This document shows, in pieces, positions 8,711 to 59,217 of a DNA stretch of 64,000 nucleotides. Positions within the stretch are counted from its first letter, which is position 1. The number at the start of each line of letters is the position of its first letter. The stretch spans positions 17,436 through 81,435 of the forward strand of contig JAISUT010000017.1 in the NCBI GenBank assembly GCA_031271905.1, written 5' to 3'. A program made the translations under genes and the position numbers. The notes beneath the pieces were generated by a model. That model searched no databases. It was given only the letters and a program-made list of their open reading frames with translations, and had not been told where the DNA came from. This DNA comes from Acidobacteriota bacterium (lineage in GTDB: Bacteria > Acidobacteriota > UBA6911).

Positions 8711-8786
8711 TGGTGAGCCGTGCTGGATTCGAACCAGCGACCCTCTGCTTAAAAGGCAGATGCTCTGCCGACTGAGCTAACGGCCC
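8711..8786 (-). tRNA. tRNA-Lys (anticodon UUU)
   Basis: The reverse complement GGGCCGTTAGCTCAGTCGGCAGAGCATCTGCCTTTTAAGCAGAGGGTCGCTGGTTCGAATCCAGCACGGCTCACCA folds as a cloverleaf. The anticodon loop CTTTTAA gives anticodon TTT. The T-arm GGTTCGAATCC and the 3' CCA are both encoded. Confidence 0.9.
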
Positions 8787-19389: not shown

Positions 19390-19424
19390 CAGGGACGTAA
19401 AGCGGTAACGAGCGGGGGGGGCGT

Positions 19425-19748: not shown

Positions 19749-19787
19749 CCCGCATCGGAAGAACCCGCGAAATAGAACAAATAAACG

Positions 19788-34161: not shown

Positions 34162-34275
34162 GGGCGCCTGCGAAAAACCCCGGACGCTGCGTCGCGCCTT
34201 GGCCGGAAATGCTCGTTCGCCGCGGCGAACTCCGTTTTTCGACCTGCGGCGACGACTTCCGGGCCCTCCGGAGTC
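34162..34275. repeat. long-form copy of the interspersed palindromic element, with a divergent right arm
   Basis: The left arm and core of gggcgcctgcgaaaaaccccggacgctgcgtcgcgccttggccggaaatgctcgttcgccgcggcgaactccgtttttcgacctgcggcgacgacttccgggccctccggag match the family. The right terminus has diverged. Confidence 0.7.
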
Positions 34276-37128: not shown

Positions 37129-39042
<1,914 letters not shown>

Positions 39043-42495: not shown

Positions 42496-42513
42496 AGTAG
42501 TCTCTCCTCCTCC

Positions 42514-43386: not shown

Positions 43387-43447
43387 AGCGTTACTCCTTC
43401 GCTGAATATTGATAATCGTCCGGGTCAGGACCCGCAAACAACCTTTA

Positions 43448-43566
43448 GGGAACCTCTAAAAACCCCGGACGCTGCGTCGCGCCTTGGTCGAAAATGCCCG
43501 TTCGCCTCGGCAAACTCCGCTTTCCGACCTGCGGCGGCGCCTTGTCCGCGAGGTTTTCAGATGCCC
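43448..43566. repeat. long-form copy of the interspersed palindromic element
   Basis: gggaacctctaaaaaccccggacgctgcgtcgcgccttggtcgaaaatgcccgttcgcctcggcaaactccgctttccgacctgcggcggcgccttgtccgcgaggttttcagatgcc. Confidence 0.8.
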
Positions 43567-44802: not shown

Positions 44803-44921
44803 GGGGCCTCTGAAAACCCCGGACGCCGCGTCGCGCCTTGGTCGAAAACGCCCATCCGCCTCGGCGGACTCCGCTTTTCGACCTGCGGCGACGCCTTGCC
44901 TGCGAGGTTTTCGGAGGCGCC
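44803..44921. repeat. long-form copy of the interspersed palindromic element
   Basis: gggggcctctgaaaaccccggacgccgcgtcgcgccttggtcgaaaacgcccatccgcctcggcggactccgcttttcgacctgcggcgacgccttgcctgcgaggttttcggaggcgcc; it lies between the convergent genes arsM and blaI-family. Confidence 0.8.
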
Positions 44922-44952: not shown

Positions 44953-45402
44953 CTAGGACTCCACCCGCGCCTCGTACTGGGAGAAGGCCTGCCAGATGTC
45001 CTCCTCCGGCGCCAAGACCCTGCCTTCCCAGCGCAGGAGCATGGTGCGGATGTTGTTGATCTGGTCGGTGTTCTTGACCTCGCTCTCCAGGAGGTAGGCG
45101 ATCATTTTCTCGGGGTCGTTGTCGAAGAAGCGCGCGATCACGTCGGAGACCTGGTTCTTCGTCGCCTGTCGTTTGGAGAGGAGCGGCTTGTAGACGTAGG
45201 CGCGGCCCACGCGCTCGTGGACCAATGCGCCCTTTTCCTCCAGAATCCCCATCAGCGTGAGGATCGTCGTATACGCCGTCGGCTTGATCTGGCAGATGGA
45301 GGCGCAGACTTCCTTCACCGTCGCCGACCCGAGGTTCCAGACCACTTTCATAATTTGAAGCTCTTGCCGCGTGAGAATAATCGACTTCAAATCCTTCTTC
45401 AT
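44953..45402 (-). CDS. BlaI/MecI/CopY-family transcriptional repressor
   Basis: 149 aa. It has a winged-helix N-terminus (LTRQELQIMKVVWNLGSATVKEVCASI...YTTILTLMGILEEKGALVHERVGRAYVYKP) and a C-terminal dimerisation helix. Confidence 0.7.
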   Translation of the reverse strand: MKKDLKSIILTRQELQIMKVVWNLGSATVKEVCASICQIKPTAYTTILTLMGILEEKGALVHERVGRAYVYKPLLSKRQATKNQVSDVIARFFDNDPEKMIAYLLESEVKNTDQINNIRTMLLRWEGRVLAPEEDIWQAFSQYEARVES

Positions 45403-45566
45403 TCTTCCTCCCTAGACTCCCTGACGATCAGACTGAGAATAATACACGATTCATTCCCGGTGCGATCACAATTCTCCGAAATTTCTGAAATCGTAAGGAT
45501 TGGAACTTGCCAATCCCCGATCCCCGTTTCGCGCAACTCCTTCTCCAAGGCGCTTGCGGCGTCCCG

Positions 45567-46667
45567 CTACTTGCGCAGGATGCTCTCCAGCCGCCGCCCC
45601 AGCAGCCTGCCTGGGCCGTCGTCGGACATGACCGCGACCCCTTCCGGGGCGCGCGCCCCCAGGCGCAACTCGGCGGCCCGCTTGATCTGCGGCTGCTCGA
45701 AGACGCCGTCCGCGCCGCCGATGCGGGCGCCGGCGTATTGCAGCACCGAGAACGCCACGGCGTCCAGGGCCACGCGGTCCCGCGACGCGGCGATGACGCC
45801 CGGGCGCGCGACCTCCCCTTTTTCCGGACCCCCGGCGACGAACACCTCCGTGGCGTCCAGAAACACGACGCCCGGCGAGTACACCTGGTTGGCTTCAGCG
45901 ATCATTTGCCCCTGGGCCGGAGAAGCGTGTAGGTCTTGCATGAAGTTCCGGCCATGGCTGGGGGCGGCATCAACACCGCGCCCTTGAATATCTTGCCCCG
46001 TCGCGTCCCTTGCCCCGACCCGCTTGGCGATAAGGCCGATGGAGTTCTTCAGGCTTGCGCTGAACCCCCCGCCGAACCGATGCGTCCGTGGCGAACACAA
46101 CTGAACAACACGACAATCTTGGATCAGAAAATCGGGAAATGCAATACCCCCCGGCCAATGAGACCCCGGAAGTTCCGCGAAACGCCACCGGGAGGCGTCC
46201 AGTTCGTCCAGCGGCAGGAAGGCGACCGACAGCGATTCCAGCACCTCCAGCGCGCCGAGCCGTCCCATCACCTCGCGCGTGCGCCCCATGCCGCTCCGCT
46301 CCACGAGGGTGATGCCTTCCGCCCCCCGCGCGCGCAACAGGCCGACCACGGCGCGGAGCGCATCCGGGTGCGTGGTCGCGGGGGGCGGCGCGGGGCTGCC
46401 GTAGGAGGCTTTGAGGTAGACGTCCCCGCCGGAGAAATCCAGCGCCCCCGCGCCGTCCCCCTCCAGCAACGCCAATGCGCGGGCGAACCCCGTCCCGCGC
46501 TCCGCGCCGCCGATGACGGCGACACGGACGCCAGCACCCTCCGGCGGCGCGCCCGCACCCCCTCCCGCAGGCGGGATGTCGGGGGCGTCCGCCTCCGGGG
46601 CGTCGCCCAGCAATGCCAAGCCGCCCAGGGACGACAGGCGGCCGAACGCCCTCCTCGTCAAACGCAT
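45567..46667 (-). CDS. DUF362-domain protein with a twin-arginine signal
   Basis: It has a Tat motif (MRLTRRAFGRLSSLGGLALLG) and a conserved DUF362 core (YLKASYGS ... SLKNSIGL ... AVAFSVLQYAG). Confidence 0.55.
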   Translation of the reverse strand: MRLTRRAFGRLSSLGGLALLGDAPEADAPDIPPAGGGAGAPPEGAGVRVAVIGGAERGTGFARALALLEGDGAGALDFSGGDVYLKASYGSPAPPPATTHPDALRAVVGLLRARGAEGITLVERSGMGRTREVMGRLGALEVLESLSVAFLPLDELDASRWRFAELPGSHWPGGIAFPDFLIQDCRVVQLCSPRTHRFGGGFSASLKNSIGLIAKRVGARDATGQDIQGRGVDAAPSHGRNFMQDLHASPAQGQMIAEANQVYSPGVVFLDATEVFVAGGPEKGEVARPGVIAASRDRVALDAVAFSVLQYAGARIGGADGVFEQPQIKRAAELRLGARAPEGVAVMSDDGPGRLLGRRLESILRK

Positions 46668-46856
46668 ACGCGACTACCTTAGCCGAACCGGCGCACGGAT
46701 GCATCAAAAAAAATTCCCGCCGATGTTCCTGGGATTCGGGATTCGGCCCGGGATTCGGGCAAAAAACGCTTGCAAAAATCACAGGAGAGGGTCAACATTC
46801 CCGCTTGCCGTATGGATAACCAAGGTGCTTGGGCTTTGCTTTGTGAAATTGGCAAC

Positions 46857-46920
46857 AGGCGCATCTGAAAACCCCGCCGACAGGGCGCTAGAGCGGCGTC
46901 CGGGGGCTTCGGGAGCGTCC
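46857..46920. repeat. short-form copy (~60 bp hairpin) of the interspersed palindromic element, in the hydrogenase operon upstream region
   Basis: aggcgcatctgaaaaccccgccgacagggcgctagagcggcgtccgggggcttcgggagcgtcc. Confidence 0.65.
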
Positions 46921-46952
46921 GATGGCTTAAACCTTCGCAGGTGTAGGTAATT

Positions 46953-48401
46953 ATGAATGAATGTCTGCTTTTCTGTCTGGTGGCGGTCCCCCTGTTCGGC
47001 TCGCTGCTGCTGCCCCTGCTGGGCAAGGCCGGCGACCAGGCGCGGAACATCTTCGCGCTGGTCTTGATGCTCTGCTCCCTCGGGATATCCTGCTTCCTGC
47101 TTCCCGTCATCGCGGGCGACCAGGTCTTGACGGTCAGCGTCGGCGGCGTCACCCTCTTTTACGCGGACAAGCTCGCCATCTTCATGGCGCTGTGCTCCCA
47201 GACGCTCGGCACCATCATCATCCTCTATTCGTTCGGCTACATCGCCCATTACGAGCACCGCAACGAATACTACTTCATGGTGGTGTTGTTCCTGGCCGCC
47301 ATGATGGGGCTGATCTTCTCGTCGAACCTGCTCTGGATATACTTCTTCTGGGAGATCACCGCCATCTGCTGCTGGAGGCTGATCGGCTTCTTCCGCGAGC
47401 GGGAGTACGTCCTGCGCGCCGACAAGGCGTTCTTCATCACCATCTTCGGCGCCCTGATGATGCTGGGCGGCTTTCTGATGGTCTACGGCCAGACCGGCAC
47501 CTTCGACCTGCTCGAGATCAAGGCGTACCTGGGGCGGCATCCGGGCGAGGTCATCGACAACACCGCGATATTGTTCATCCTGTTCGGCATCCTCTCCAAG
47601 TCCGCCACGCTGCCGCTGCACACCTGGCTGCCTGACGCCGGCGTCGCCCCTTCGCCCGTCACCGCGTTGCTGCATGCGGCGGTGCTGGTGAAGATCGGCG
47701 TCTACGTCTTCGCCCGCCTGTTCGTGGCGACCTTCACCGTGGACGGGATATGGTGGGAGGTCGTGCCCTGGATAGCCGCCGCGAGCGCCTTGGTCAGCGC
47801 CTGCGCCGCGCTGGTGGAGAACGACATCAAGCGCATCGTCGCCTACTCGACCGTCAGCCAGCTCGCATTCATCCTGCTGGGGCTCGCAGTCCATAACGAG
47901 GTCAGCGTCCTGGGCGGCCTGCTCTACATCCTGATGCACGGCATCGCCAAGGCGGGGCTGTTCCTTTGCGCCGGGGTGGTGGAGCACGAGACGCACAACA
48001 AAGACATCCGCAGGATGGGCGGGCTGGTCAAGACCATGCCGGTCACGGCGGTCTCCTTCGGCCTGTGCGCCTTCTCGGTCATGGGGCTGCCCCCGTTCGG
48101 CGGCTTCTTCAGCAAGTACATGGTGGTCAACGGCGCGCTCGAGTCGGGGCAGGTCGCCATCGGGCTGACCTTCGTGGCGGGCGCGTTCCTGACCCTCGCC
48201 TACCTCCTGCGGGTCTATGTGCGCGTGTTCTTCGGCGCGAGCCGGGCTGCGGACGACGGGCATGGGGCGCCTAAGGAAGGCTCGCCCATCATGGTGTTCA
48301 GCGTGGCGTTGCTCGCCGCGCTCTCCCTGCTCAGCGGCGTGGTGATCGGCCCGTCGTTCCAGTTCGCCCAAGAGGCGGTGCGGCAGATGATGGGTCGGTA
48401 A
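46953..48401 (+). CDS. group-4 hydrogenase membrane subunit, Mrp/NuoN-MnhD-like antiporter module (1 of 3)
   Basis: 482 aa with ~14 transmembrane helices. It carries conserved antiporter-module motifs (WLPDAGVAPSPVTALLHAAVLVKIGVY, AYSTVSQLAFILLGLA). Confidence 0.8.
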   Translation: MNECLLFCLVAVPLFGSLLLPLLGKAGDQARNIFALVLMLCSLGISCFLLPVIAGDQVLTVSVGGVTLFYADKLAIFMALCSQTLGTIIILYSFGYIAHYEHRNEYYFMVVLFLAAMMGLIFSSNLLWIYFFWEITAICCWRLIGFFREREYVLRADKAFFITIFGALMMLGGFLMVYGQTGTFDLLEIKAYLGRHPGEVIDNTAILFILFGILSKSATLPLHTWLPDAGVAPSPVTALLHAAVLVKIGVYVFARLFVATFTVDGIWWEVVPWIAAASALVSACAALVENDIKRIVAYSTVSQLAFILLGLAVHNEVSVLGGLLYILMHGIAKAGLFLCAGVVEHETHNKDIRRMGGLVKTMPVTAVSFGLCAFSVMGLPPFGGFFSKYMVVNGALESGQVAIGLTFVAGAFLTLAYLLRVYVRVFFGASRAADDGHGAPKEGSPIMVFSVALLAALSLLSGVVIGPSFQFAQEAVRQMMGR

Positions 48402-48525
48402 GAACAGACGGCGGGGGCGGGCGCGCCCGTCCCGCCTTGTGACAAGGGGGTGGGCTCCGAGGACTTCGCGGATGAGGCGCGACGCAGCGTCCGGGGTTCG
48501 GGGGCTTCCCTGAAAAGGCAAAACA

Positions 48526-50367
48526 ATGAGCACGGAAAATCTGATGTTACTCGCCATTTTCCTTCCCATCGTCTTGGCGGTCGTCCCGTTGGCGCTGGTC
48601 AAGAAAAATGCCCTCGCCGCCGGAGCCGTCGCGATCGCAGCCAGCTTCGCGAACCTCGTCGTGGTCTGCCTGGCCTACGGCAAGGATGCCGCCCTCACCC
48701 TGCCCTGGGCGGGCTGGTTCTTCGAGTTCACGTTGCGCAACTACCAGTTCAGCTCCTTCATCCTGGCTGCCGCCGCGCTCTTCGGGGCGTTGCTCTCGGT
48801 CTACAACACGGTCTTCCTCAAGGACAAGGCCTACGGATGGCTCTTCCACGCCTACTTCCTGCTGACCCTGGGCTTCGTCAACGGCGCCATCTTGGCCGAC
48901 AACCTGCTGCTGCTCCTGTTTTTCTGGGAGGGGCTGCTGGGTCTGATGTTCGGCATGATCTACCTCGGCCACCGCGACGCCTACCGCACCGCGACCAAGG
49001 CGGTCATCATCGCCGGGGTCACCGACCTGTGCATGATGTTCGGCATCGGGCTCGCCGTCCACCTCGCCGAGACCGCGACCATGTCGCAGATGAAGGTGCC
49101 GATGGAAGGCTTGGGGGGCTTGGCCTTCGTGCTCCTGGTGATCGGGGCGATCTCCAAGGCGGGCTCCATGCCGTTTCACACTTGGATCCCGGACGCCGCG
49201 ACCGACGCGCCGATGCCGTTCCTGCCCTTCGTCCCGGCGGCGCTGGAGAAGTTGCTGGGCATCTACCTCCTCGCCCGCGTCACGCTCGACTTCTTCAAGC
49301 TGGACGGCGGGCACTGGGGCTCGATGCTGCTGATGGTCGTCGGCGCGCTCACCATCAACTTGGCGGTGGCGATGGCGCTCATCCAGAAAGACTACAAGCG
49401 CCTCCTGTCCTACCACGCCATCAGCCAGGTCGGCTACATGATCCTGGGCATCGGCACCTGCACCCCGGTCGGTGTCGTCGGGGGCCTGTTCCACATGCTC
49501 AACCACACGATCTACAAGTGCTGCCTGTTCCTGACCAGCGGCTCGGTGGAGCGGCAGGCGGGGACGACCGACCTGCGGAAGATCGGCGGCCTGGGGCGCA
49601 AGATGCCGGTCACCTTCGTCCTGTTCATCATCGCGGCGGCCGCCATCGCCGGCTTCCCGGGCACGAACGGCTTCTTTTCCAAGGAGCTGGTCTATGACGG
49701 CGCCTTGGAGCGGCACTGGATATTCTACGCGGCGGCGGTGCTGGGCTCGTTCCTGACGGCGGCGTCCTTCCTGAAGCTGGGGCACGCCGCATACCTTGAC
49801 AAGGGGCGCGGCGACGCGAGCAAGGTCAAGGAGGCGCCGGCGGCGATGCTCGTCCCCGGAATCGTCCTGGCGGCGCTCTGCCTCGCCTTCGGCGCAGGCA
49901 ACGCCTTCCCGCTCCACAATTTCATCCAGCCGGTGCTGGGCGATGCGTTGCACGGGCATGACTACTCGGGCTTCCACTTCAAGCTGGTGCTGGTCGGCGG
50001 CTCCGTCGCGGCGCTGCTGCTGGCCTTCGCCAACCACTATTTCGGCGCGAAGAGCAAGGGGAGCGGCCTTGCGGCGGTGGACCACATCCACTACGCGCCG
50101 GGCCTGCACCAGATCTACGACGCGGCGGAGAAGCGCTTCTTCGACCCCTATGATTGGGCGAGGAACGTGGGCAAGGCGGTCGCCTACGTCGGCTTCGGCA
50201 TCGACCGCGCCATCGACTTCTTCTTCAACAAGGTCGTCGTCTTCGTCGCCGGCGGAATCTCCGGCACCATCCGTGCGCTGCATAACGGGAGCCACGCCAC
50301 ATACCTGGCATGGACTTTGGCCGGCCTTGTGATCGTAATCGTCGCCTGCATGGCGGGTCGCCTGTAG
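48526..50367 (+). CDS. group-4 hydrogenase membrane subunit, NuoL/MnhA-like antiporter module (2 of 3)
   Basis: 613 aa. It has the motifs FFWEGLLGLMFGMIYLG, HTWIPDAATDAPMPFLPFVPAAL and SYHAISQVGYMILGIG, plus the C-terminal extension typical of NuoL-type subunits. Confidence 0.8.
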   Translation: MSTENLMLLAIFLPIVLAVVPLALVKKNALAAGAVAIAASFANLVVVCLAYGKDAALTLPWAGWFFEFTLRNYQFSSFILAAAALFGALLSVYNTVFLKDKAYGWLFHAYFLLTLGFVNGAILADNLLLLLFFWEGLLGLMFGMIYLGHRDAYRTATKAVIIAGVTDLCMMFGIGLAVHLAETATMSQMKVPMEGLGGLAFVLLVIGAISKAGSMPFHTWIPDAATDAPMPFLPFVPAALEKLLGIYLLARVTLDFFKLDGGHWGSMLLMVVGALTINLAVAMALIQKDYKRLLSYHAISQVGYMILGIGTCTPVGVVGGLFHMLNHTIYKCCLFLTSGSVERQAGTTDLRKIGGLGRKMPVTFVLFIIAAAAIAGFPGTNGFFSKELVYDGALERHWIFYAAAVLGSFLTAASFLKLGHAAYLDKGRGDASKVKEAPAAMLVPGIVLAALCLAFGAGNAFPLHNFIQPVLGDALHGHDYSGFHFKLVLVGGSVAALLLAFANHYFGAKSKGSGLAAVDHIHYAPGLHQIYDAAEKRFFDPYDWARNVGKAVAYVGFGIDRAIDFFFNKVVVFVAGGISGTIRALHNGSHATYLAWTLAGLVIVIVACMAGRL

Positions 50368-50382
50368 CGGAGGAGTGTTAAC

Positions 50383-51828
50383 GTGATAACTCTTTACATA
50401 GCGCTGCCCCTGGCAGTCGTTCTGCTCCTGAACCTGTCGCCCCGGAGGACCGCCAACGCGCTCAGCCTCTGGTGCGGCTTGGTGCTGACGGTCTTTGCGG
50501 GGGCGTACACCCTCGCCATGCCGCACGTCCCCGGGCTCGCGGACGCCTTCGACCCCGCCAACCGGGTGTTGCAGTGGAAGATCGAGGCGGGCAACCTCGC
50601 CGGCGTGATGTTCCTCTCCATCGCCTTGGTGGTCTTTTCCGCCTTCTGGGTGGGGCGCTACCTGATCGCCGACTCCAACCGGCGGTTCATCTTCAACAAC
50701 CTCCTGTTGCTGTGCATGACGGGGATGAACGGCATCGTGCTGTCCAACGACCTTTTCACCCTGTACGTGTTCTTGGAGGTCGTCGCCGCCTCATCCTTCA
50801 TCCTGATCGCGCTGGAGCGGACGAACGCCGGCCTGGAGGGCGCGTTCAAGTACGTCCTGCTCTCGGCGGTCGCCACGGTGCTGGTGCTCTCGTCGATGGC
50901 GCTGATCTTCGTGCTGGTGGGGAGCCTGGACTACGGCACGGTCAAGGCGGTCTTGACGTCCGGTCAGCTCGACGCGGCGACCTCGCGCTTCGTCACTTTC
51001 GCCATCGGCCTGTTCGTCGTCGGCCTGTTCATCAAGGGCGGCATGGTGCCGTTCCACGGATGGCTGCCGGACGCCTACTCCTCCGCCCCCACGGCTTCGT
51101 CCGTCCTGCTGGGCGGCATCGTGACCAAGGCGGCGGGGGTGTTCACGCTCATCCAGCTCGCGCAGAACGTATTCGGCTGGGACAAGCCCTCGCCGGTCTT
51201 GCTCGCCGTCGGCACGCTCTCCATCGCGGTCGGCGCCTTCGCGGCGTTGGGGCAGAGGAACTTCAAGCGGATGCTGGCGTATTCGAGCATCAGCCAGATC
51301 GGCTACATCATCATCGGCCTGGGCGCCGCCAACGAGGTCGCCGTCGTCGGCGCGATCCTGCACCTGTTCAACCACTCGACTTTCAAGACCCTCCTGTTCG
51401 TCAACTCCGCCGCCGTGGAGAAACAGGCGGGCACCGTGGACATGGACAAGCTGGGCGGCCTCGCGAACAAGATGCCGGTGACCGGCTTCACCTCGGTGCT
51501 GGCGATGCTCTCGACCGCCGGCGTGCCGCCGTTGTCCGGCTTCTGGAGCAAGCTTTTGATCGTGCTCGGCGTCTGGCTGTCGGGGGCGCACGCGGTGGCG
51601 GTGACGGCGATATTGCTGAGCGTGGTCACGCTGGCGTACTTCCTCTCGATGCAGCGCCGGGTGTTCTTCGGCAGGCTGGCGCCGGGGCTTGAAGGCGTCA
51701 AGGAGGCGGGCGGCTGGTTGCTGGTGCCCGAGATCGTCCTGGCGGTCATCACGCTGGGGCTTGGTTTGACGATGCCGTGGTTCTTTAACACATTTCTCGT
51801 TCCCCTGCGGAGCTTGTGGAGCTTGTAA
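50383..51828 (+). CDS. group-4 hydrogenase membrane subunit, NuoM/MnhD-like antiporter module (3 of 3)
   Basis: 481 aa. It has the motifs HGWLPDAYSSAPTASSVLLGGIVTKAAGVF and AYSSISQIGYIIIGLGA. Confidence 0.8.
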   Translation: MITLYIALPLAVVLLLNLSPRRTANALSLWCGLVLTVFAGAYTLAMPHVPGLADAFDPANRVLQWKIEAGNLAGVMFLSIALVVFSAFWVGRYLIADSNRRFIFNNLLLLCMTGMNGIVLSNDLFTLYVFLEVVAASSFILIALERTNAGLEGAFKYVLLSAVATVLVLSSMALIFVLVGSLDYGTVKAVLTSGQLDAATSRFVTFAIGLFVVGLFIKGGMVPFHGWLPDAYSSAPTASSVLLGGIVTKAAGVFTLIQLAQNVFGWDKPSPVLLAVGTLSIAVGAFAALGQRNFKRMLAYSSISQIGYIIIGLGAANEVAVVGAILHLFNHSTFKTLLFVNSAAVEKQAGTVDMDKLGGLANKMPVTGFTSVLAMLSTAGVPPLSGFWSKLLIVLGVWLSGAHAVAVTAILLSVVTLAYFLSMQRRVFFGRLAPGLEGVKEAGGWLLVPEIVLAVITLGLGLTMPWFFNTFLVPLRSLWSL

Positions 51829-52358
51829 TTATGCTTTCGCTAGGCACAATCCTTCTTATCCTGCTCGTGCTCATGGTGCTCTCGGCGCTTTGGGCGGTGA
51901 TGGCGACGGATCTCTTGCGCTCCACCATCGCGCTGGCATTGACGAGCGTCTTTCTCGCCATCGCCATCTATATGATGGGCGCGCCCTTGGCGGCGGTCTT
52001 CGAGCTCTCGGTCTGCGCCGGCCTGATCACGGTGGTCTTCATCAGCGCCATCAGCATGATCAAGCCCGAGGGGAACACCCGCAAGGAAGACCTCGCCCGC
52101 AAGAGGCGGAAACGCTTGAAGAAGTACATCCCGCTGCCGATCCTGCTGGCGGTCGCGGGCGTCCTGCTGTGGCTGAACCGGGTCGACCTGCCGTTCACGC
52201 CCGACGCGGACGTGTTCCCGCTCACCCTGTCTGAGATCATGTGGGACGTCAGGCGCGTGGACATCGCCGGCCAGGCGGTCATGATCCTGGTCGGGGTCTT
52301 CGGCATCGTCGTCCTGTTCAAGGAATTCGTGAGGCGCGGCAAAGGAGGGGAGGAGTAA
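51816..52358 (+). CDS. MrpB/MbhD-E-like small membrane subunit of the hydrogenase antiporter module
   Basis: 180 aa with 4-5 transmembrane helices. The N-terminal half resembles DUF4040/MnhB and the C-terminal half resembles MbhE. The start may be the Met at 51831. Confidence 0.6.
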   Translation: MELVIMLSLGTILLILLVLMVLSALWAVMATDLLRSTIALALTSVFLAIAIYMMGAPLAAVFELSVCAGLITVVFISAISMIKPEGNTRKEDLARKRRKRLKKYIPLPILLAVAGVLLWLNRVDLPFTPDADVFPLTLSEIMWDVRRVDIAGQAVMILVGVFGIVVLFKEFVRRGKGGEE

Positions 52359-52666
52359 TGGAAAACCTGTTCTGGTTCCTGACGTCTTTCGTGGCGCTCC
52401 TGTTCATCATAGGGCTCTATGCGCTGCTGGCGACGCGCAACCTGTTGCGCATCCTGATCGGGATGGAAATACTCACCAAGGGCGTGACCTTGCTGCTCAT
52501 CGCCGCTGGCTTCCTGGCCGGGCGGCAGAACGCCATGCAACCCATCGTCATCACCATGATCGTGGTCGAGGTGGTGATCATCGCGGTCGCGGCGGGCATC
52601 GTCATCGCCTCGTACCGCAACAACAAGACCATCAGCGTGCGCGCGTTGCGCAACCTGAAAGGGTAG
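52358..52666 (+). CDS. NuoK/MrpC/MbhG-like membrane subunit
   Basis: The start is ATG 52358 after GGAGGGGAGGAG. It is 102 aa with three transmembrane helices, and it has the NuoK-type conserved Glu in a transmembrane helix (GMEILTKG). Confidence 0.75.
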   Translation: MENLFWFLTSFVALLFIIGLYALLATRNLLRILIGMEILTKGVTLLLIAAGFLAGRQNAMQPIVITMIVVEVVIIAVAAGIVIASYRNNKTISVRALRNLKG

Positions 52667-52675
52667 GGGGGGGAC

Positions 52676-53032
52676 ATGGACAAGATCATCGAGGTGAAAG
52701 ACGTATACCTTTTGTTGCCGCCCATCGCGTTCCTGATCGTCTTCGTCTTCGTCTGGTTGCAGTACGTGGGCTTGAAGATGTTCTCGGCGGGCGAGAAGTG
52801 GAAGGACGAGGAGGGCAAGCGCGAGTCCTACGCCTGCGGCCATGACGTGAAGGACTCCCGCGTGGCGCCGGACTACAGCCAGTTCTTCTCCTTCGCCTTC
52901 TTCTTCACGATCATGCACGTCGTGGCGCTGATAGTGACCACGTTCCCTTCGGGTGACGTCGAGGCGCTCGCCTTGGGCGTCGGCTACCTGGTCTCGGCGG
53001 CGGTGGGTCTTTTCATCCTGTTTAAGAGGTAA
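52676..53032 (+). CDS. small membrane subunit (MbhI/NuoA-like)
   Basis: 118 aa with three transmembrane helices. A YACGHD motif in the central loop resembles the NuoA Y(E/A)CG motif. Its position immediately upstream of the NuoB-like gene matches MbhI. Confidence 0.5.
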   Translation: MDKIIEVKDVYLLLPPIAFLIVFVFVWLQYVGLKMFSAGEKWKDEEGKRESYACGHDVKDSRVAPDYSQFFSFAFFFTIMHVVALIVTTFPSGDVEALALGVGYLVSAAVGLFILFKR

Positions 53033-53038
53033 CGCATC

Positions 53039-53533
53039 ATGGGTCTTATCAAATCGCTTGTGACCTGGTCGCGCGTCAAGTCGCCGTGGGTCATCCACTT
53101 CAACACCGGCGCGTGCAACGCCTGCGACATCGAGATCGTGGCGTCGATCACCCCCAAGTTCGACTTGGAGCGTTTCGGGGTCCAGTTGAAGGGGACGCCG
53201 CGCCACGCGGACGTGTTGCTCTGCTCCGGCCCGGTGACCCGGCAGATCGAGTCCCGGCTCAAGCGCGTCTACGAGCAGATGTCCAACCCCAAGTTCGTGG
53301 TAGCCATCGGGACTTGCGCCTGCTCCGGCGGCGTGTTCAACGGGTGCTACAATGTCAAGGGCGGCATCGACACGGTGATCCCGGTCTCGGCATACATCCC
53401 CGGATGCCCGGTGCGTCCGGAGGCGATCATCGACGGCGTGGTCAAGCTGCTCGGCAGCCTGAAGAACCCCGCCGCCGCGCCGAAGCTGCCCATCACCATA
53501 GACCCGGCAGGGGTGTTGGAGAAAGGAGCGTAG
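53039..53533 (+). CDS. [NiFe]-hydrogenase group-4 small subunit (NuoB/EchC/MbhJ-like)
   Basis: 164 aa with the four Cys of the proximal [4Fe-4S] cluster (GACNACDIE, CSGPV, GTCACSGG, GCPVRP). Confidence 0.85.
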   Translation: MGLIKSLVTWSRVKSPWVIHFNTGACNACDIEIVASITPKFDLERFGVQLKGTPRHADVLLCSGPVTRQIESRLKRVYEQMSNPKFVVAIGTCACSGGVFNGCYNVKGGIDTVIPVSAYIPGCPVRPEAIIDGVVKLLGSLKNPAAAPKLPITIDPAGVLEKGA

Positions 53534-53538
53534 GGTCA

Positions 53539-54015
53539 ATGGCAAACGAGCAGGCGATACAGATGGAGTTGCAGGACACGTTCCCGTACCTGAACGAGAA
53601 GATCGTCGTCACGCGGGAGCGGCGCATCTGGGCGGAGGTCGCGTCGGAGCATTTCTTCGAGGTGTTCGACTACCTGGTCAAGCACCCGAAATGGGACTTC
53701 CCGATCCTGTGCCTGATCACCGGGCTGGATTCGGGGGACAACCTCGAGTTCATCTACCACCTGGCGCGGCGGGACGGCACGATGTTCAACTTGAAGACCT
53801 TCGTCCCCAAGTCGAACCCGGTGCACAAGACCGTCACGACCGATTATTTCCCCGGCGCGGAGCTTTACGAGCGGGAGCTTGTGGACGTGCTCGGCGCGAA
53901 GATCGAGGGGTTGCCGCCGGGGAACCGGTACCCGTTGCCGGACGGCTGGCCGGACGGGCAGTACCCGCTGCGCAAGGACTGGACCCCGGACATGCTGGAC
54001 AAGGGGAACCTGTAA
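53539..54015 (+). CDS. NuoC/EchD/MbhK-like hydrogenase subunit
   Basis: The start is ATG 53539 with a GGAG ribosome-binding site, giving 158 aa. It has the NuoC-fold motifs ILCLITGLD and LVDVLG. Confidence 0.75.
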   Translation: MANEQAIQMELQDTFPYLNEKIVVTRERRIWAEVASEHFFEVFDYLVKHPKWDFPILCLITGLDSGDNLEFIYHLARRDGTMFNLKTFVPKSNPVHKTVTTDYFPGAELYERELVDVLGAKIEGLPPGNRYPLPDGWPDGQYPLRKDWTPDMLDKGNL

Positions 54016-54035
54016 GAAGTGGCAAGGAGGTGTGT

Positions 54036-55271
54036 ATGGTGAATCCGGAAAAGATAGTGAAGATACCGATAGGCCCTCAGCATCCGGCGCTCAAGGAGCC
54101 GGCTTGCTTCACGGTCTCGCTCAACGGCGAGAAGCTGGTCGATCTCGACCTGCGCTTGGGCTACAACCACCGCGGCGTCGAAAAGGCCGCAGAGGGGCGC
54201 ACGTACACCCAGAACATGTATCTTTTCGAGCGGGTGTGCGGCATCTGCTCGCACTCCCACGCGACCTGCTTCATCCAATGCGTCGAGGAGGTCGCGGGCT
54301 TGGAGGTGCCGCCGCGCGGACGTTTCCTGCGCACGCTCATCGGCGAGCTGGAGAGGATTCACAGCCACTTCCTCTGGCTGGGCGTCGCCGCCCATGAGAT
54401 CGGCTTCGACACGCTTCTGATGTACTCCTGGCGCGACCGCGAAGTGGTGATGGACTTGCTGGCGATGCTGACCGGCAACCGCGTCAACTATGCCGCCAAC
54501 GTCATCGGCGGCGCCAAGCACGATGTCACCGACGAGCAGAAGGCGGCCATCCTCAAGGCCGTCGATACGCTGGAAGAGCGCACGAAATACTACATCGAGG
54601 TGGCTTCGGAGGAGACCACGCTGATCGCCCGGCTCTCGAACGTCGGCCGCATCTCCCTCGAGGACGTGAAGCGCCTCGGGACGGTGGGCCCGACGGCGCG
54701 GGCGTCCGGCCTCAGCCAGGACGCGCGGCGCGACGATCCTTACGCGGCGTACAAGGAAGTGCCGTTCAGCGTCATCACCGACACGCATTGCGACGTTTAC
54801 GGGCGCACGCTCGTGAGGGTCGGCGAACTCATGGAGTCCTACAAGATCATCCGGTACGTCCTGCAGAACCTGCCCGACGGCCCCATCGCGGCGAAGGCCC
54901 CGCGCAAGATCCCCGCCGGGGAGGCGGTGAGCCGCTACGAGGCCCCGCGCGGCGAGGACGTCCACTATGTGCGCGGCAACGGCACGGAAAAGCCCGAGCG
55001 GGTGCGGGTGCGCGCCCCCACGATGGTGAACCTCCTGTCCGTGCCCAAGATGCTGGAGGGGAACAACCTGGCCGACGTGCCGATCACTGTCGCCGCCATC
55101 GACCCCTGCTTCTCCTGCACCGACCGGGCGATCCGGGTCGCGGACGCCGACGGCGGCAACGCGCAGGTCTTCTCCTGGGAGGAGTCGCGGCGTTTCGGCA
55201 TCGACTGGTACCGGAAGAACGGCGTCGATTTCACCGACGTGAACAAGCGCTTGGCGCAGCGGTTGAAATAA
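54036..55271 (+). CDS. [NiFe]-hydrogenase group-4 large (catalytic) subunit (NuoD/EchE/MbhL-like)
   Basis: The start is ATG 54036 with an AAGGAGG ribosome-binding site, giving 411 aa. Both Ni-Fe-ligating CxxC motifs are present, N-terminal L1 RVCGICSHSH and C-terminal L2 DPCFSCTDR, so this is a bona fide hydrogenase and not a complex-I NuoD. Confidence 0.85.
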   Translation: MVNPEKIVKIPIGPQHPALKEPACFTVSLNGEKLVDLDLRLGYNHRGVEKAAEGRTYTQNMYLFERVCGICSHSHATCFIQCVEEVAGLEVPPRGRFLRTLIGELERIHSHFLWLGVAAHEIGFDTLLMYSWRDREVVMDLLAMLTGNRVNYAANVIGGAKHDVTDEQKAAILKAVDTLEERTKYYIEVASEETTLIARLSNVGRISLEDVKRLGTVGPTARASGLSQDARRDDPYAAYKEVPFSVITDTHCDVYGRTLVRVGELMESYKIIRYVLQNLPDGPIAAKAPRKIPAGEAVSRYEAPRGEDVHYVRGNGTEKPERVRVRAPTMVNLLSVPKMLEGNNLADVPITVAAIDPCFSCTDRAIRVADADGGNAQVFSWEESRRFGIDWYRKNGVDFTDVNKRLAQRLK

Positions 55272-55292
55272 GGGAACCCATAACCTATTTAA

Positions 55293-55348
55293 GGGCGCCT
55301 CCGAAAAGGCCCCCGGGCGCAGCGTCCGGGGGTTTTCGGGGGCGTCCC
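55293..55348. repeat. short-form copy of the interspersed palindromic element, between the large-subunit gene and the NuoH-like gene
   Basis: gggcgcctccgaaaaggcccccgggcgcagcgtccgggggttttcgggggcgtccc. Confidence 0.65.
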
Positions 55349-55374
55349 GAAGTCATAGACAAACAGGGTAAGAA

Positions 55375-56313
55375 ATGGCGGCATCCATAATTGAAATGAT
55401 CGTGTTCCCGGGATTCGTCTTCCTGGGGGTGCTGGGCATGATTTTCGAGTACGTGGACAGGATCCTGTACGCGCGACTGCAAAACCGCAAGGGGCCGCCC
55501 TGGTTCCAGCCGTTCGCGGATTTCATCAAGCTGGCGGCTAAGGAGGACATCGTCCCGCGCGAGGCCGACTCGGTGATGTTCAAGGTCACCCCGTTGCTGG
55601 CCGCGACGGCGACGGTGGTGGCGTCGTTCTACATCCCGCTCTGGGGCCCTGCGGCGCTCCATTCCTTCGCGGGCGACGCGGTGGTGGTCATCTACCTGCT
55701 GACGATCCCGACGATGTCGTTCTTCCTCGCCGGCTGGTATTCGACCTCGCTCTACTCGACGGTGGGCGCGGTGCGCACCATCACGCAGCTTTTCGCCTAC
55801 GAGGTGCCGCTGTTTTTGGTGATCCTGGCGCCCGGCATCCTCGCCAAGACGTGGTCGTTGAGCGAGATGGCGGCGTTTTACAGCGCCCACCCGCTCCTGT
55901 GCCTGTCCAACGTCGTCGGCTTCGTCGTCGCGATCGTGGCGCTCCAGGGGAAGCTGGAGCGGATACCCTTCGACATCCCGGAGGCGGAGACCGAGATCGT
56001 CGCGGGCACCTTCACCGAATACAGCGGACGGCTGCTGGTGCTGTTCCGGCTGGCCATCAGCATCGAGACCGTCGTGGGCGCGGCGCTGATCTCCGCCGTG
56101 TTCCTGCCCTTCGGCTACGGCCTGGGCGCGGCGTGGGGCTTCGTCGTCTTCATCGTGAAGATCGCCTTCGTGATGGTCATCCTGGCGGTGTTCAAGACTT
56201 CGGTGGCGCGCCTGCGCATCGAGCAGATGGTCAACTTCTGCTGGAAGTACGTGGCGCCGGCGGCGGTCTTGCAACTGTTCATCAGCTTGATTCTGAGCGC
56301 GTTCGTCGGGTAG
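55375..56313 (+). CDS. NuoH/EchB/MbhM-like membrane subunit
   Basis: 312 aa with eight transmembrane helices. It has the NuoH-type motifs DRILYARLQNRKGP and FDIPEAETEIVAGTFTEYSG. Confidence 0.85.
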   Translation: MAASIIEMIVFPGFVFLGVLGMIFEYVDRILYARLQNRKGPPWFQPFADFIKLAAKEDIVPREADSVMFKVTPLLAATATVVASFYIPLWGPAALHSFAGDAVVVIYLLTIPTMSFFLAGWYSTSLYSTVGAVRTITQLFAYEVPLFLVILAPGILAKTWSLSEMAAFYSAHPLLCLSNVVGFVVAIVALQGKLERIPFDIPEAETEIVAGTFTEYSGRLLVLFRLAISIETVVGAALISAVFLPFGYGLGAAWGFVVFIVKIAFVMVILAVFKTSVARLRIEQMVNFCWKYVAPAAVLQLFISLILSAFVG

Positions 56314-56435
56314 ACGGCGAAAAAGGTTTCGCCGCGACGGGGACTGGCGGCGGCTCTGGAAACGAACGACTGCGGATGGGCGCGGATGGTGGGGCGGGGC
56401 AGCCTCCATCGGCGTCCGTCCCCGGTTGAAAATCT

Positions 56436-56894
56436 TTGAAGGCACGGGGAAGTATGAAAAAACCAGGGAAGATGCTGGCCGAGTTGTTGAGACATGTGAC
56501 CAAGCGGCCTGCGACCACGCAATATCCGTTCAAGAAGATCGACGTCCCGGCGACCTACCGGGGGCGCATCGTATTCATTTCCGAGAACTGCATCGGGTGC
56601 AAGCTCTGCATGAGGGACTGCCCCGCTTCGGCGATCACCATCAACAAGGTCGGCGAGGAGAAGATATTCGAGGCGGTCTTCGATCTGGACAAGTGCATCT
56701 ACTGCGCGCAGTGCGTCCTGTCCTGCAACAAGAAGGCGCTCATGACCTCGACCGATTTCGAGTTGGCGCAGATCACCCGGAAAAACCTCAGAATGGTGTA
56801 CGATGCCAAACCCAAACCGCCCGCTCCCCCCAAAGAACCCGTCGTCGCGCCGCCTGCTGACGCAGGGGCTGCGCCGGCTTCTCCGCAAGCCTGA
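56436..56894 (+). CDS. NuoI/EchF/MbhN-like 2x[4Fe-4S] ferredoxin subunit
   Basis: Two CxxCxxCxxxCP motifs are present (CIGCKLCMRDCP, CIYCAQCVLSC). The start may be the Met at 56454. Confidence 0.8.
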   Translation: MKARGSMKKPGKMLAELLRHVTKRPATTQYPFKKIDVPATYRGRIVFISENCIGCKLCMRDCPASAITINKVGEEKIFEAVFDLDKCIYCAQCVLSCNKKALMTSTDFELAQITRKNLRMVYDAKPKPPAPPKEPVVAPPADAGAAPASPQA

Positions 56895-57480
56895 CGGCGC
56901 CGGGGGGGGGGCTGGGGGCGCCGAAGCCTGCGATGCGCCCCGCAAGGCCGCCTTCGTCGGCATCGGCTCGGAGTTGCGCGGCGACGACGCCGTGGGCGTG
57001 GTCGTCGCCAACAGGCTTCGGGACTGGCAATCCTCCGGCCGCGACGCCGGCGACGCCCCGTCCCATCTTCTTGCGGGCGCCGGGGAAAAGCCCGCAGGCG
57101 CGGCGTCCGGGGTTTTCAACGACGCCCTTTTCGTAAACGGCGGGAGCGCCCCGGAGAACGTCTTGGGCGAGGTCAAGGCTTTCCAGCCCGACGTCATCGT
57201 CTTCATCGACGCGGCTGTCATGGGGCGTGAGCGGGGCGCCGTCCGGCTCATCGACACGCGCCAGGAGAAGATATCCGGCATTTCTTTTTGCACGCACAGC
57301 CTGCCGCTCACCATCATCGCCGACTACATCCGCCAGAGCCTCGACTGCGAGATATATGTCATCGGCATCGAGCCGGGCGACATGGGGTTCCGCCCCGACT
57401 GCGCCCTGTCGCCGCCCGTGGCTGCGGCGGCCGACGAGGTGGTGGACGCCATCGTCGATGCGTCCCTCCCGCCGGCGTGA
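56803..57480 (+). CDS. hydrogenase maturation endopeptidase (HycI/HyaD family), with an unusual start that overlaps the preceding gene
   Basis: AAFVGIGSELRGDDAVGV is the GxGNxxxxDDGxG-like maturation-protease motif, and IVFIDAAVMG with its Asp/His context matches HycI. The only in-frame ATG or GTG is at 56803, 92 nt inside the NuoI-like gene. Confidence 0.65.
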   Translation: MPNPNRPLPPKNPSSRRLLTQGLRRLLRKPDGAGGGAGGAEACDAPRKAAFVGIGSELRGDDAVGVVVANRLRDWQSSGRDAGDAPSHLLAGAGEKPAGAASGVFNDALFVNGGSAPENVLGEVKAFQPDVIVFIDAAVMGRERGAVRLIDTRQEKISGISFCTHSLPLTIIADYIRQSLDCEIYVIGIEPGDMGFRPDCALSPPVAAAADEVVDAIVDASLPPA

Positions 57481-57737
57481 CCGTCGCTTGGGACGGGGGG
57501 GGGATGGGCGGGGTTTCGCGCCGCGGACGGATCTTGGCGCTGCGGCGCCCGCCGTCGCATGCCGCCCCTCCGCCGGGTCGCCGCATGAATTCCATCCATT
57601 TCCCGAAATTTATAGTACAATCGGCGCGTTTGATTTTGATGGTTGGCAAGTGGGGTGCGCCTGACGCATGATGTCCGGCGCACGGAGTTTTACGGGGTCC
57701 GCGGCGGCGTGACGCCGTCGCGGATGTTCGAGCTTGT

Positions 57738-57803
57738 GGGCGCCTCTGAAAACCTCGCAGACAAGGCGCTGGCGCTGTTATCCGGGGTTTTTAGAGGCTC
57801 CCT
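57738..57803. repeat. short-form copy of the interspersed palindromic element, immediately upstream of the MFS transporter start
   Basis: gggcgcctctgaaaacctcgcagacaaggcgctggcgctgttatccggggtttttagaggctccc. Confidence 0.75.
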
Positions 57804-57804
57804 C

Positions 57805-59217
57805 ATGGACGCAACCGGCATGAAGACGGAGATGGGGCGCTATCGCTGGACGATCTGCGCGCTGCTGTTTTTCGCCACGACGGTCAACTACCTCGACCGG
57901 CAGGTCCTGAGCCTGCTCCAGCCGATGCTGTCGAAGGAGTTCGGCTGGTCGAACTCCGACTACGCCGACATCACGTCGGTGTTCCAGTTCGCCTACGGCC
58001 TTGCGGTGCTTTTCGCGGGGCGCTTCATCGACCGCGTCGGGACCAAGCGGGGCTACGCCTGGGCGATAGCGGTGTGGTCGGTCGGCGCCGCCATCCATGC
58101 GGCGGTGTCGGGCGCGGGGGGCGTCGGCGCGGCGGTGTCGCCCGCGCTGGCGGCGGTCGGCGTCGCCGTGCCGGTCTCGGTCGCCGGCTTCATGGTCGGG
58201 CGCTTCGTGCTGGCGGTCGGCGAGGCGGGCAACTTCCCGGCGGCCATCAAGACCGTCGGCGAATGGTTCCCGCGCAAGGAACGCTCGCTGGCGACGGGCA
58301 TATTCAACTCGGGCGCGAACATCGGCGCGGTCCTCGCCCCCCTGCTGGTGCCTTGGATGGCAGGGCTCTGGGGCTGGCAGACGGCGTTCCTCGCCGTCGG
58401 CGCGGCGGGCTTCGTCTGGCTGGCGTTCTGGCTGGCGTTCTACGACGCGCCGGAGAAGATGCTCGCGAAGGGGAAGGTCGGCCAGGCGGAATACGACCGC
58501 ATCGCCGCCGACCGGGAGCCGCTCGAAAAAGCCGACGCCGAAAAGCCTGCGGACGGGGCGGAGGCGAAGGTCTCCTGGTTCACGCTCCTGAAATTCCGCC
58601 AGACCTGGGCGTTCTTCTTCGGGAAGTTCTTCACCGACGGCGTCTGGTGGTTCTTCCTGTTCTGGCTCCCCTCGTTCCTCAAGGCGCAGTACGGCATGGA
58701 GGGGACGGAGATCATGTGGCCGCTCGGCGTGCTCTACAGCCTGACGATGGTCGGCAGCGTCTGCGGCGGCTGGTTCCCCGCCTGGTTCATGAAGAAGGGG
58801 ATGGAGGCGTACAAGGCCCGCATGACGGCCATGTTCGTCATCGCGCTCTTCCCTCTGGCGGTGCTGCTGACGCAGACGGCGGGGCGGCGCGGGATGTGGT
58901 TCGCCATCCTCCTGATCGCCATCGGCTGCTCGGCGCACCAGGCATGGTCGGCGAACATCTACACCACGGTCTCGGACATGTTCCCCAACGGCGCGGTGGC
59001 GTCCATCACCGGCATCGGGACGATGGCGGGCAGCTTCAGCGGCGTGCTCGTCTCCAAGGCCGCAGGGGCGTTGTTCGACCATTACGAGAAAATGGGCGAC
59101 GTGACCGTGGGCTACAGCATCGTCTTCGTGTATTGCGCCGTGGCGTACCTGGTCGCCTGGTGCGTGATGAAGTCGCTGGTGCCGCGCTTTGCGCCGGTGA
59201 ACGTGAAATTGCACTAG
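57805..59217 (+). CDS. MFS transporter, ACS/ExuT-like (hexuronate/sugar-acid transporter)
   Basis: It has 12 transmembrane helices. RWTICALLFFATTVNYLDRQVLSLLQP and GRFIDRVGTKRG are typical of ExuT/ACS-family MFS proteins. The start is ATG 57805 or 57820. Confidence 0.75.
   Translation: MDATGMKTEMGRYRWTICALLFFATTVNYLDRQVLSLLQPMLSKEFGWSNSDYADITSVFQFAYGLAVLFAGRFIDRVGTKRGYAWAIAVWSVGAAIHAAVSGAGGVGAAVSPALAAVGVAVPVSVAGFMVGRFVLAVGEAGNFPAAIKTVGEWFPRKERSLATGIFNSGANIGAVLAPLLVPWMAGLWGWQTAFLAVGAAGFVWLAFWLAFYDAPEKMLAKGKVGQAEYDRIAADREPLEKADAEKPADGAEAKVSWFTLLKFRQTWAFFFGKFFTDGVWWFFLFWLPSFLKAQYGMEGTEIMWPLGVLYSLTMVGSVCGGWFPAWFMKKGMEAYKARMTAMFVIALFPLAVLLTQTAGRRGMWFAILLIAIGCSAHQAWSANIYTTVSDMFPNGAVASITGIGTMAGSFSGVLVSKAAGALFDHYEKMGDVTVGYSIVFVYCAVAYLVAWCVMKSLVPRFAPVNVKLH

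Follow-up and report, generated by a model that had tools for sequence, protein, structure and literature searches.

We found that twelve co-directional genes in a 64,000-nucleotide stretch of an Acidobacteriota genome (GTDB lineage UBA6911; assembly GCA_031271905.1, contig JAISUT010000017.1, positions 17,436 to 81,435; the whole stretch is called the window below) encode a putative energy-converting group-4 [NiFe] hydrogenase, whose subunit set by sequence comparison is the 11-subunit complement of complex I (A, B, C, D, H, I, J and K plus three L/M/N-like subunits) with a Ni-Fe site. The operon belongs to a widespread and already recognised bacterial family, and the window adds no new kind of system. 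Of the functions considered, the likeliest is H2 evolution driven by ferredoxin with coupled ion export, which we consider probable, and the operon suggests that this Acidobacteriota organism would be able to shed fermentative reducing power as H2 and conserve some energy in doing so, a point of use in reading H2 fluxes where soils and sediments are anoxic. Members of the clade are very frequent among uncultured anaerobes, with thousands of homologues across more than ten phyla, and the nearest solved structure to them is the membrane-bound hydrogenase (MBH) of Pyrococcus. By joining a Ni-Fe site with the full membrane-arm complement of complex I, the clade would bear on two long-standing questions, the evolution of complex I from hydrogenases and the number of ion paths that a small redox span is able to drive.

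Gene content and conserved residues of the operon

Inspection of the open reading frames (ORFs) placed twelve intact genes on the + strand at window positions 46953-57480. An independent gene caller gave the same coordinates in a second assembly of the same species (L082), minus nuoI, which was not listed there; the start of g4 at 51831 is taken from the independent call. All twelve co-directional genes of the initial annotation were recovered, and all are intact. The short or overlapping junctions that it described held for most gene pairs (-1 to 20 nt), but not for three gaps of 124, 103 and 140 nt. The last gene, g12, overlaps g11 by 92 nt, and window GC content is 62-71%. The features, with lengths in amino acids (aa) and transmembrane helices abbreviated TM, are as follows.

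g1, 46953..48401, +, antiporter-like subunit, 482 aa, MrpA-N/NuoL/HyfD type, without a C-terminal lateral helix
g2, 48526..50367, +, antiporter-like subunit, 613 aa, with predicted NuoL-type C-terminal extension (TM15, long lateral helix, TM16)
g3, 50383..51828, +, antiporter-like subunit, 481 aa, MbhH/MrpD type
g4, 51831..52358, +, NuoJ-like subunit, 175 aa, equivalent to MbhD plus a C-terminal part that is faintly MbsE-like
g5, 52358..52666, +, NuoK/MrpC/MbhG-like subunit, 102 aa
g6, 52676..53032, +, small subunit with three TM, 118 aa, at the MbhI position, NuoA/ND3-like in sequence
g7, 53039..53533, +, hydrogenase small subunit, NuoB/MbhJ-like, 164 aa
g8, 53539..54015, +, NuoC/MbhK-like subunit, 158 aa, separate from the large subunit
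g9, 54036..55271, +, [NiFe] large subunit, NuoD/MbhL-like, 411 aa
Hairpin in the g9-g10 gap, 55293..55347, +, GC-rich, ~25 bp, relative of a REP-like repeat
g10, 55375..56313, +, NuoH/MbhM-like membrane anchor, 312 aa
g11, 56454..56894, +, NuoI/MbhN-like subunit with two [4Fe-4S] clusters, 146 aa, presumed site of ferredoxin entry
g12, 56803..57480, +, HycI-type endopeptidase for the large-subunit C-terminus, 225 aa from the only upstream ATG

Residue conservation was assessed in aligned orthologues from 79 species-level loci, which a scan of one genome per GTDB species had returned with large subunits 52-83% identical; residue counts cover 51-75 sequences. The large subunit g9 matched both Complex1_49kDa (PF00346) and NiFeSe_Hases (PF00374) in Pfam and carries the motifs RVCGICSHSH and DPCFSCTDR. 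C68, C71, C361 and R364 were invariant (75/75 orthologues), and C358 was present in 74/75, one sequence having Asp at this position. A tail of 47 aa follows DPCFSCTDR, and tails of 35-50 aa follow DPCxxCxxR in every orthologous large subunit. Against chains in the Protein Data Bank (PDB), g9 scored 333 bits with MbhL, 277 with HycE and 208 with Nqo4. The small subunit g7 (Pfam Oxidored_q6, 9e-32; NCBIfam NuoB above cutoff) has C26, C29, C93 and C123, which correspond to one proximal [4Fe-4S] cluster, invariant in 60 sequences. The Pfam match of g8 was Complex1_30kDa (2.4e-19), while g11 matched Fer4 families as well as NCBIfam NuoI, HycF and HyfH, with C46, C49, C52 and C56 kept in 51/51 orthologues and C81, C84, C87 and C91 in 50/51. 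The protease g12 was recognised by Pfam HycI (1.6e-10), by TIGR00142 hycI (99.6 bits) and by the hydrogenase-protease superfamily model above cutoff. A HycI homologue occurs in 56/79 related loci; among the 53 loci with a full set of 11 structural genes, it comes after the operon in 43. The conserved ligands, the tail and the protease support, at the level of sequence, a functional group-4 [NiFe] enzyme. In this respect the initial annotation was borne out: it had read both Ni-Fe-ligating motifs in the NuoD-like protein, all four proximal-cluster cysteines in the NuoB-like protein and a HycI-type maturation protease, and had called the enzyme a true hydrogenase and not a relative of Ehr or complex I.

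The reading frame of g12 has a single canonical start upstream of the conserved GIG...GDD motif, which gives it a Pro/Arg/Gly-rich N-terminal extension of ~50 aa overlapping nuoI. It also has an insertion of ~40 aa relative to the HycI model, and its orthologues are mostly 137-179 aa long.

All three antiporter-like subunits proposed at the outset as Mrp/NuoL-M-N-type modules matched Pfam Proton_antipo_M (g1, 6.5e-74; g2, 1e-51; g3, 4e-60). The first of them, g1, also matched Proton_antipo_N, the N-terminal domain of NuoL/MrpA-type proteins, and its best PDB matches were MrpA, NdhF and NuoL. The matches of g2 were more divergent (MrpD, MrpA, Nqo12 and MbsH'), although the NuoL hidden Markov model spans it end to end (residues 4-611), and g3 was best matched by MbhH (6cfw_H, 182 bits) and MrpD. 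When aligned to E. coli NuoL/M/N and HyfB/D/F, g1-g3 all keep the TM5 Glu, TM7 Lys, TM11 His/Lys and TM12 Lys, and the TM8 residue is His in g1 and Lys in g2 and g3. The core positions in TM5, TM7, TM8 and TM12 were invariant in 60-68 orthologues per subunit. In g1 the invariant residues were E134, K216, H241, H329, K333 and K388 (60 sequences), and in g3 E132, K218, K249, H327, H331, K335 and K390 (68 sequences). In g2, E135, K211, K242 and K386 were invariant, and among its key charged positions only two TM11 histidines varied.

An AlphaFold2 model of g2 built with 39 homologues (pLDDT 80.6, pTM 0.80) places TM15 at residues 487-511, a 45-residue helix at 541-585 and a final transmembrane helix at 590-609. 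The top Foldseek matches of this model were full-length NuoL/ND5/NdhF and MrpA chains (TM-score ~0.73). From these helices and fold matches, g2 is predicted to carry a NuoL-type lateral helix followed by TM16. In some lineages g1 and g2 are fused, so that the two are probably neighbours within the complex. Such fusions of ~1000 aa were seen in three homologues (P0168, P0187 and P0206), including one from a Margulisiibacteriota metagenome-assembled genome (MAG). In the latter (P0206), residues 3-430 correspond to g1 at 60% identity and residues 490-1000 to g2 at 57%, with ~90 N-terminal residues of g2 missing.

The remaining membrane subunits complete the set. Pfam matched g4 to Oxidored_q3 (NuoJ) with a weak additional match to MbhD, and its orthologue profile found MbsD (2e-11), MbhD (4e-9), NuoJ (~2e-6) and, over the C-terminal part, MbsE (0.41) in the PDB. 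Of the initial description of g4 as MrpB/MbhDE-like, the MbhD(+E) part therefore stands, with likeness to NuoJ, and the MrpB part does not. The match of g5 was Oxidored_q2 (NuoK, 1.4e-17), and its membrane glutamates E37 and E71 were present in 72/73 and 73/73 sequences, respectively. For g6, Pfam gave only a sub-threshold match to Oxidored_q4 (NuoA), and the single sequence reached E 0.25 against the PDB. A profile of 32 orthologues matched only ND3/NuoA chains there (best E 2e-4, nearly full length) and did not match MbhI; the conserved loop of the family reads YACG(E/H)D...PDYSQFF. Finally, g10 matched Pfam NADHdh (7.8e-72) and scored 141 bits with MbhM, 120 with Nqo8 and 83 with HycD.

Distribution and relation to known systems

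The 79 loci carry labels of Acidobacteriota, Omnitrophota, Planctomycetota, Spirochaetota, Bacillota, Bacteroidales, Elusimicrobia, Armatimonadota, Riflebacteria, Krumholzibacteriaceae, Edwardsbacteria, Myxococcales, Geobacteraceae and Syntrophorhabdaceae, among others, and so span more than ten phyla. Records labelled Aminicenantes and Thermoanaerobaculaceae also occur, which we take to be Acidobacteriota under GTDB. The gene order L1-L2-M-J-K-A-B-C-D-H-I was colinear in 79/79 loci; all 11 genes were present in 53/79, and contig ends cut most of the others. In protein databases we counted at least 8000 homologues at E <= 1e-20, many of which bear the name 'membrane-bound hydrogenase subunit alpha' at JGI or 'nickel-dependent hydrogenase large subunit' at NCBI. 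Three antiporter-like subunits are the rule for this clade. The initial annotation had called this number unusual, which does not hold, as the gene order is shared by all 79 loci and E. coli Hyf has three too (PMC3144371).

One locus labelled Syntrophorhabdaceae (L002, WRHP01000031.1) has a whole operon 55-82% identical to that of the window, subunit by subunit. It is as near to the window as the closest Acidobacteriota locus (L001) despite its other phylum label, and its likeness reflects either a recent cross-phylum transfer or a binning error.

Among characterised enzymes, the closest is the MBH of Pyrococcus furiosus (PDB 6CFW; HydDB group 4d, ferredoxin-coupled and Mrp-linked), which gave the best solved matches through MbhL, MbhM and MbhH, with MbsD/MbhD as best matches for g4. 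The order of g6-g11 equals mbhI-J-K-L-M-N, and neither system has a dedicated electron-input module. The operon differs from MBH in that genes for MbhA-C (MrpEFG) were not found in it, that it encodes three antiporter-like subunits versus one (MbhH), and that D- and E-like parts are joined in one protein (g4). Moreover, its antiporter genes precede the J/K-like genes, and g6 at the MbhI position resembles NuoA/ND3 with no detectable MbhI match. The NuoL-type lateral helix is predicted here on g2, whereas in MBH the lateral helix was reportedly assigned to MbhI.

E. coli hydrogenase-4 (Hyf, formate hydrogenlyase-2; group 4a) likewise combines three antiporter-like subunits with NuoK-, NuoH-, NuoI- and NuoB-like subunits, and the antiporter-like subunits of both systems keep the TM5 Glu and TM7 Lys. 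However, Hyf has HyfA, a formate dehydrogenase partner, a large subunit in which NuoC and NuoD are fused and another gene order; g9 is only 36% identical to HyfG (263 bits), and the TM12 position is Glu in HyfB and HyfF but Lys in g1-g3. Compared with the Mrp Na+/H+ antiporter, g1 is nearest the antiporter domain of MrpA, g3 is nearest MrpD and g5 nearest MrpC, whereas MrpE, MrpF, MrpG and an MrpB-like domain were not found here and the module is attached to a redox module. With 11-subunit complex I (NuoABCDHIJKLMN without NuoEFG) the operon shares a one-to-one subunit complement, a predicted NuoL-type subunit with lateral helix and TM16 (g2), NuoA-, NuoJ- and NuoK-like small subunits, and the key charged residues of NuoL/M/N in g1-g3. 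It differs in keeping the Ni-Fe site, cleavable tail and HycI, which complex I has lost, binding quinone instead (PMC3144371), and in that g9 scores ~208 bits or less with NuoD chains, below MbhL.

The operon fits the bacterial clusters published as 'Mbh-Mrp type' or 'group 4g', which have a group-4 large subunit beside Mrp antiporter-like subunits, no oxidoreductase module and ferredoxin as presumed donor. These include 'Mbh (group 4g) plus Mrp-type module' in MAGs of Omnitrophota, Cloacimonadota and Auribacterota (PMC8542988, PMC9324843), Mbh-plus-Mrp-like clusters also reported as group 4g (PMC11257099), the 'Mbh-Mrp type' of Elusimicrobia, including the isolate Elusimicrobium minutum (bioRxiv 10.1101/765248), and an Mrp-Mbh that lacks an oxidoreductase module and is akin to enzymes found in Pelobacter propionicus and Clostridia (PMC6349859). 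Saganbacteria are also among the reported hosts. Our related loci come from the same phyla, and the comparison is with published descriptions, which are given there at a level above single residues or subunits. Because these descriptions fit, we file the operon with this known kind, taking the 4g label from them only; subgroup placement rests on PDB bit scores and published labels. Group 4g is itself a loose class in HydDB, of 'undetermined role' and putatively ferredoxin-coupled (PMC5037454); it was found polyphyletic in a 2026 study (PMC13582414), and a rumen study called it 'functionally unresolved' yet highly expressed (PMC6776011).

According to Moparthi and Hagerhall, the common ancestor would have had 11 subunits and a Ni-Fe site, and hydrogenases lack NuoA and NuoJ (PMC3144371). 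At profile level, the present clade holds both NuoA- and NuoJ-like subunits. NuoJ-like subunits had already been seen in MBH structures, and in the literature searched, to which access was partial, no paper made the NuoA/NuoJ point for the bacterial clade. We put forward tentatively, as a suggestion with the odds against it, that the clade resembles the proposed ancestor, having a NuoABCDHIJKLMN-type set with a functional Ni-Fe site, NuoA/NuoJ-like subunits and a NuoL-type lateral helix over three intact antiporter-like subunits. If this were true, the very low-energy transfer from ferredoxin to H2 would be coupled to a pump of complex I size, which would imply gearing unlike that of complex I or MBH and provide a natural test case for the number of antiporter modules per redox span.

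Proposed function and alternative readings

In the mechanism that we favour, reduced ferredoxin would dock on the NuoI-like g11, from which electrons would travel by way of the two [4Fe-4S] clusters in that subunit to the one cluster in the NuoB-like g7 and on to the Ni-Fe site of g9, where two H+ would be reduced to H2. This redox step would be coupled to g3, g1 and g2 via the NuoH-like g10, NuoA-like g6, NuoJ-like g4 and NuoK-like g5, with the lateral helix of g2 holding the three antiporter-like subunits together. By exporting ions, these subunits would save some of the little free energy that fermentative H2 release makes available. HycI would cut the 47-residue tail off g9 after Ni insertion. 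The donor, the direction of the reaction towards H2, the coupling ion, the stoichiometry and the arrangement of subunits along the membrane arm are all inferred. The assignment is consistent with Pyrococcus MBH chains being the nearest solved structures for the catalytic and anchor subunits and for g3.

Gene context points to ferredoxin mainly through what does not accompany the operon. Neither NuoEFG nor a formate dehydrogenase or CO dehydrogenase partner was found at the window operon, in line with the initial annotation, which had described an enzyme without NuoEFG-type or formate dehydrogenase partner genes. A flank census of ~79 related loci (up to five ORFs upstream and six downstream) likewise turned up no module for electron input that recurs, be it NuoEFG, a formate dehydrogenase, a CO dehydrogenase or another. 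By analogy with MBH, ferredoxin would be the most economical donor. A nearby AOR had also been cited in favour of this donor, an argument that we abandoned. The AOR (40399-42513, - strand) is YdhV-like, and upstream of it lies a co-directional gene for a NrfC/HybA-type poly-[4Fe-4S] protein with the twin-arginine motif SRRDFLVTG (pair at 40399-43455, - strand). Since its Fe-S partner carries a Tat signal, the pair is probably exported, and the AOR was set aside as a ferredoxin source because it gives poor support for a cytoplasmic link. Homologues of MrpEFG (MbhA-C), which belong to the Na+ module of Mrp and MBH, are missing from the operon, whose gaps are <=140 nt, and were found neither in the scanned ORFs of the window nor within any of the 79 colinear operons. 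This agrees with the absence noted initially and mildly favours H+ over Na+ as the coupling ion, a preference held with low confidence.

The energetic constraints were estimated with standard potentials of -414 mV for H+/H2 and about -450 to -500 mV for ferredoxin. Transfer from ferredoxin yields ~10-17 kJ per H2 at 1 bar H2 and ~30-40 kJ at 10 Pa, and moving one ion against 150-180 mV costs ~15-17 kJ, which suggests export of at most ~2 ions per H2. Complex I has ~80 kJ available. With a maximum of ~2 ions per H2, four complex-I-like paths all running outward at 1:1 would not be feasible, and coupling must therefore differ from that of complex I. Possibly the ion paths are not all used 1:1, or some of them may exchange ions, as has been proposed for MBH and Mrp. 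It is also possible that the enzyme is often reversed, with ferredoxin reduction by H2 driven by the gradient.

Several observations weigh against H2 evolution with ion export as the function of this operon. The putative ion paths, complex-I-like in number, exceed what electron transfer from ferredoxin to H2 would be able to pay for. No hyp maturation genes were found among the scanned ORFs of the 64-kb window; in the flank census, hypA and hypB lay upstream of the operon in ~7 loci, mostly of Bacillota. Scans for promoter and terminator consensus sequences over 46400-58000 gave counts no better than shuffles, so the operon boundaries rest on gene spacing only. Lastly, the literature searched, to which we had partial access, contained no biochemical data on any member of the clade.

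One alternative reading is that the complex runs mainly in reverse, oxidising H2 and spending the ion gradient to push electrons onto ferredoxin like Ech/Eha of methanogens, in which case the many ion paths would act as a high ion-per-electron 'gear' that makes ferredoxin reduction possible at low H2. All three antiporter-like subunits and the NuoH/A/J/K path are intact, ion paths appear to outnumber those that the driving force could fund in the pumping direction, and Ech-type group-4 enzymes are physiologically reversible (PMC5037454). A supplier of the gradient is also conceivable in the membrane-bound pyrophosphatase, the commonest neighbour of the operon in the flank census (18 loci). We nonetheless judge this reading unlikely: the host context is sugar-degrading (GH67, a ROK protein, an MFS transporter of sugar-acid type and GlgB), the clade is common among fermenters such as Omnitrophota, Spirochaetota, Bacillota and Elusimicrobia, no CO2-fixation genes adjoin the operon in the flank census, and Pyrococcus MBH, the closest characterised enzyme, evolves H2.

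Two further readings change the electron donor or acceptor. An enzyme of the formate hydrogenlyase-2 kind, with a formate dehydrogenase and a HyfA-like partner encoded elsewhere in the genome, would suit the HycI type of the protease. It is nevertheless very unlikely, given that no HyfA, FdhF or FocB-like gene occurs in the operon or elsewhere in the window, or in the flanks of ~79 loci, that NuoC and NuoD are separate with no HycE/HyfG-type fusion, that the gene order is unlike hyf, and that MBH chains give better scores than HycE/HycD for the large and NuoH-like subunits. The complement of 11-subunit complex I, and the name 'NADH-quinone oxidoreductase' that NCBI gives to several subunits, might instead suggest a hydrogenase-related complex (Ehr, Mbx, Mbs or 11-subunit complex I) that reduces another acceptor. 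This reading is contradicted by the Ni-Fe ligands, the tail and HycI and has the slightest chance of all: 75 orthologues keep the four Ni-Fe cysteines and the DPCxxCxxR arginine, apart from the one Asp at C358, and the cleavable tail and co-encoded HycI are features lost in Ehr, Mbx, Mbs and complex I (PMC3144371, PMC6349859).

Neighbouring genes and intergenic repeats

The flanking genes named initially were all found in the window, namely a DUF362 protein with a Tat signal (TRRAFG motif), an MFS transporter, a ROK protein and the AOR, and the flanks also hold a BlaI-type repressor. DUF362, the BlaI-type repressor, the MFS transporter and the ROK protein do not recur beside related operons and were for that reason rejected as components of the system. 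DUF362 and the BlaI/Penicillinase_R-type repressor lie divergent from the operon (44953-46667, - strand), and the pair is also present in the second assembly of the species. Genes for DedA-like and ExbB/ExbD-like proteins recur in the flanks of related loci. Elsewhere in the window, tatA and tatC were located at 19401-20585 and a gene for a GlgB-like glycogen branching enzyme at ~37150-39042 (+ strand), a region overlain by spurious ORFs of great length (1643 aa on the + strand, 639 aa on the opposite strand), as is typical of DNA this rich in GC. Searching the window for Rfam families and tRNAs returned a single match, tRNA-Lys at 8711-8786.

The three long gaps within the operon are lineage-specific. 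Orthologous gaps have medians of -4 to 2 nt (2 nt for g9-g10), and the closest Acidobacteriota locus has a similar long gap. All three hold GC-rich hairpins, with the following predicted folding free energies (dG) and z-scores.

g9-g10 gap, 55272-55374, dG -54.4 kcal/mol, z -5.4
g10-g11 gap, 56314-56453, dG -66.1 kcal/mol, z -3.1
g1-g2 gap, 48402-48525, dG -61.5 kcal/mol, z -1.96

A motif of the GCGTCCGGGG...GGGGGC type occurs in the g1-g2 gap, the g9-g10 gap and the operon leader as well as in a dispersed intergenic repeat. The core of this repeat, CCAAGGCGCGACGC(A/G)GCGTCCGGGGTTTT, has four copies in the window versus 0 expected, and the copies also share an upstream flank of ~45 nt. Core copies and the degenerate relatives, the latter recognised by motif likeness, are located as follows.

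Repeat core, 5244-5272, -, intergenic
Repeat core, 34174-34202, -, intergenic
Repeat core, 43459-43487, -, intergenic
Repeat core, 44813-44841, -, intergenic
Degenerate relative, 46894-46916, operon leader
Degenerate relative, 48485-48505
Degenerate relative, 55320-55342

These motif-bearing sequences look like REP-like (repetitive extragenic palindromic) insertions and not like parts of the hydrogenase system, and the gap hairpins may affect mRNA stability or subunit stoichiometry.

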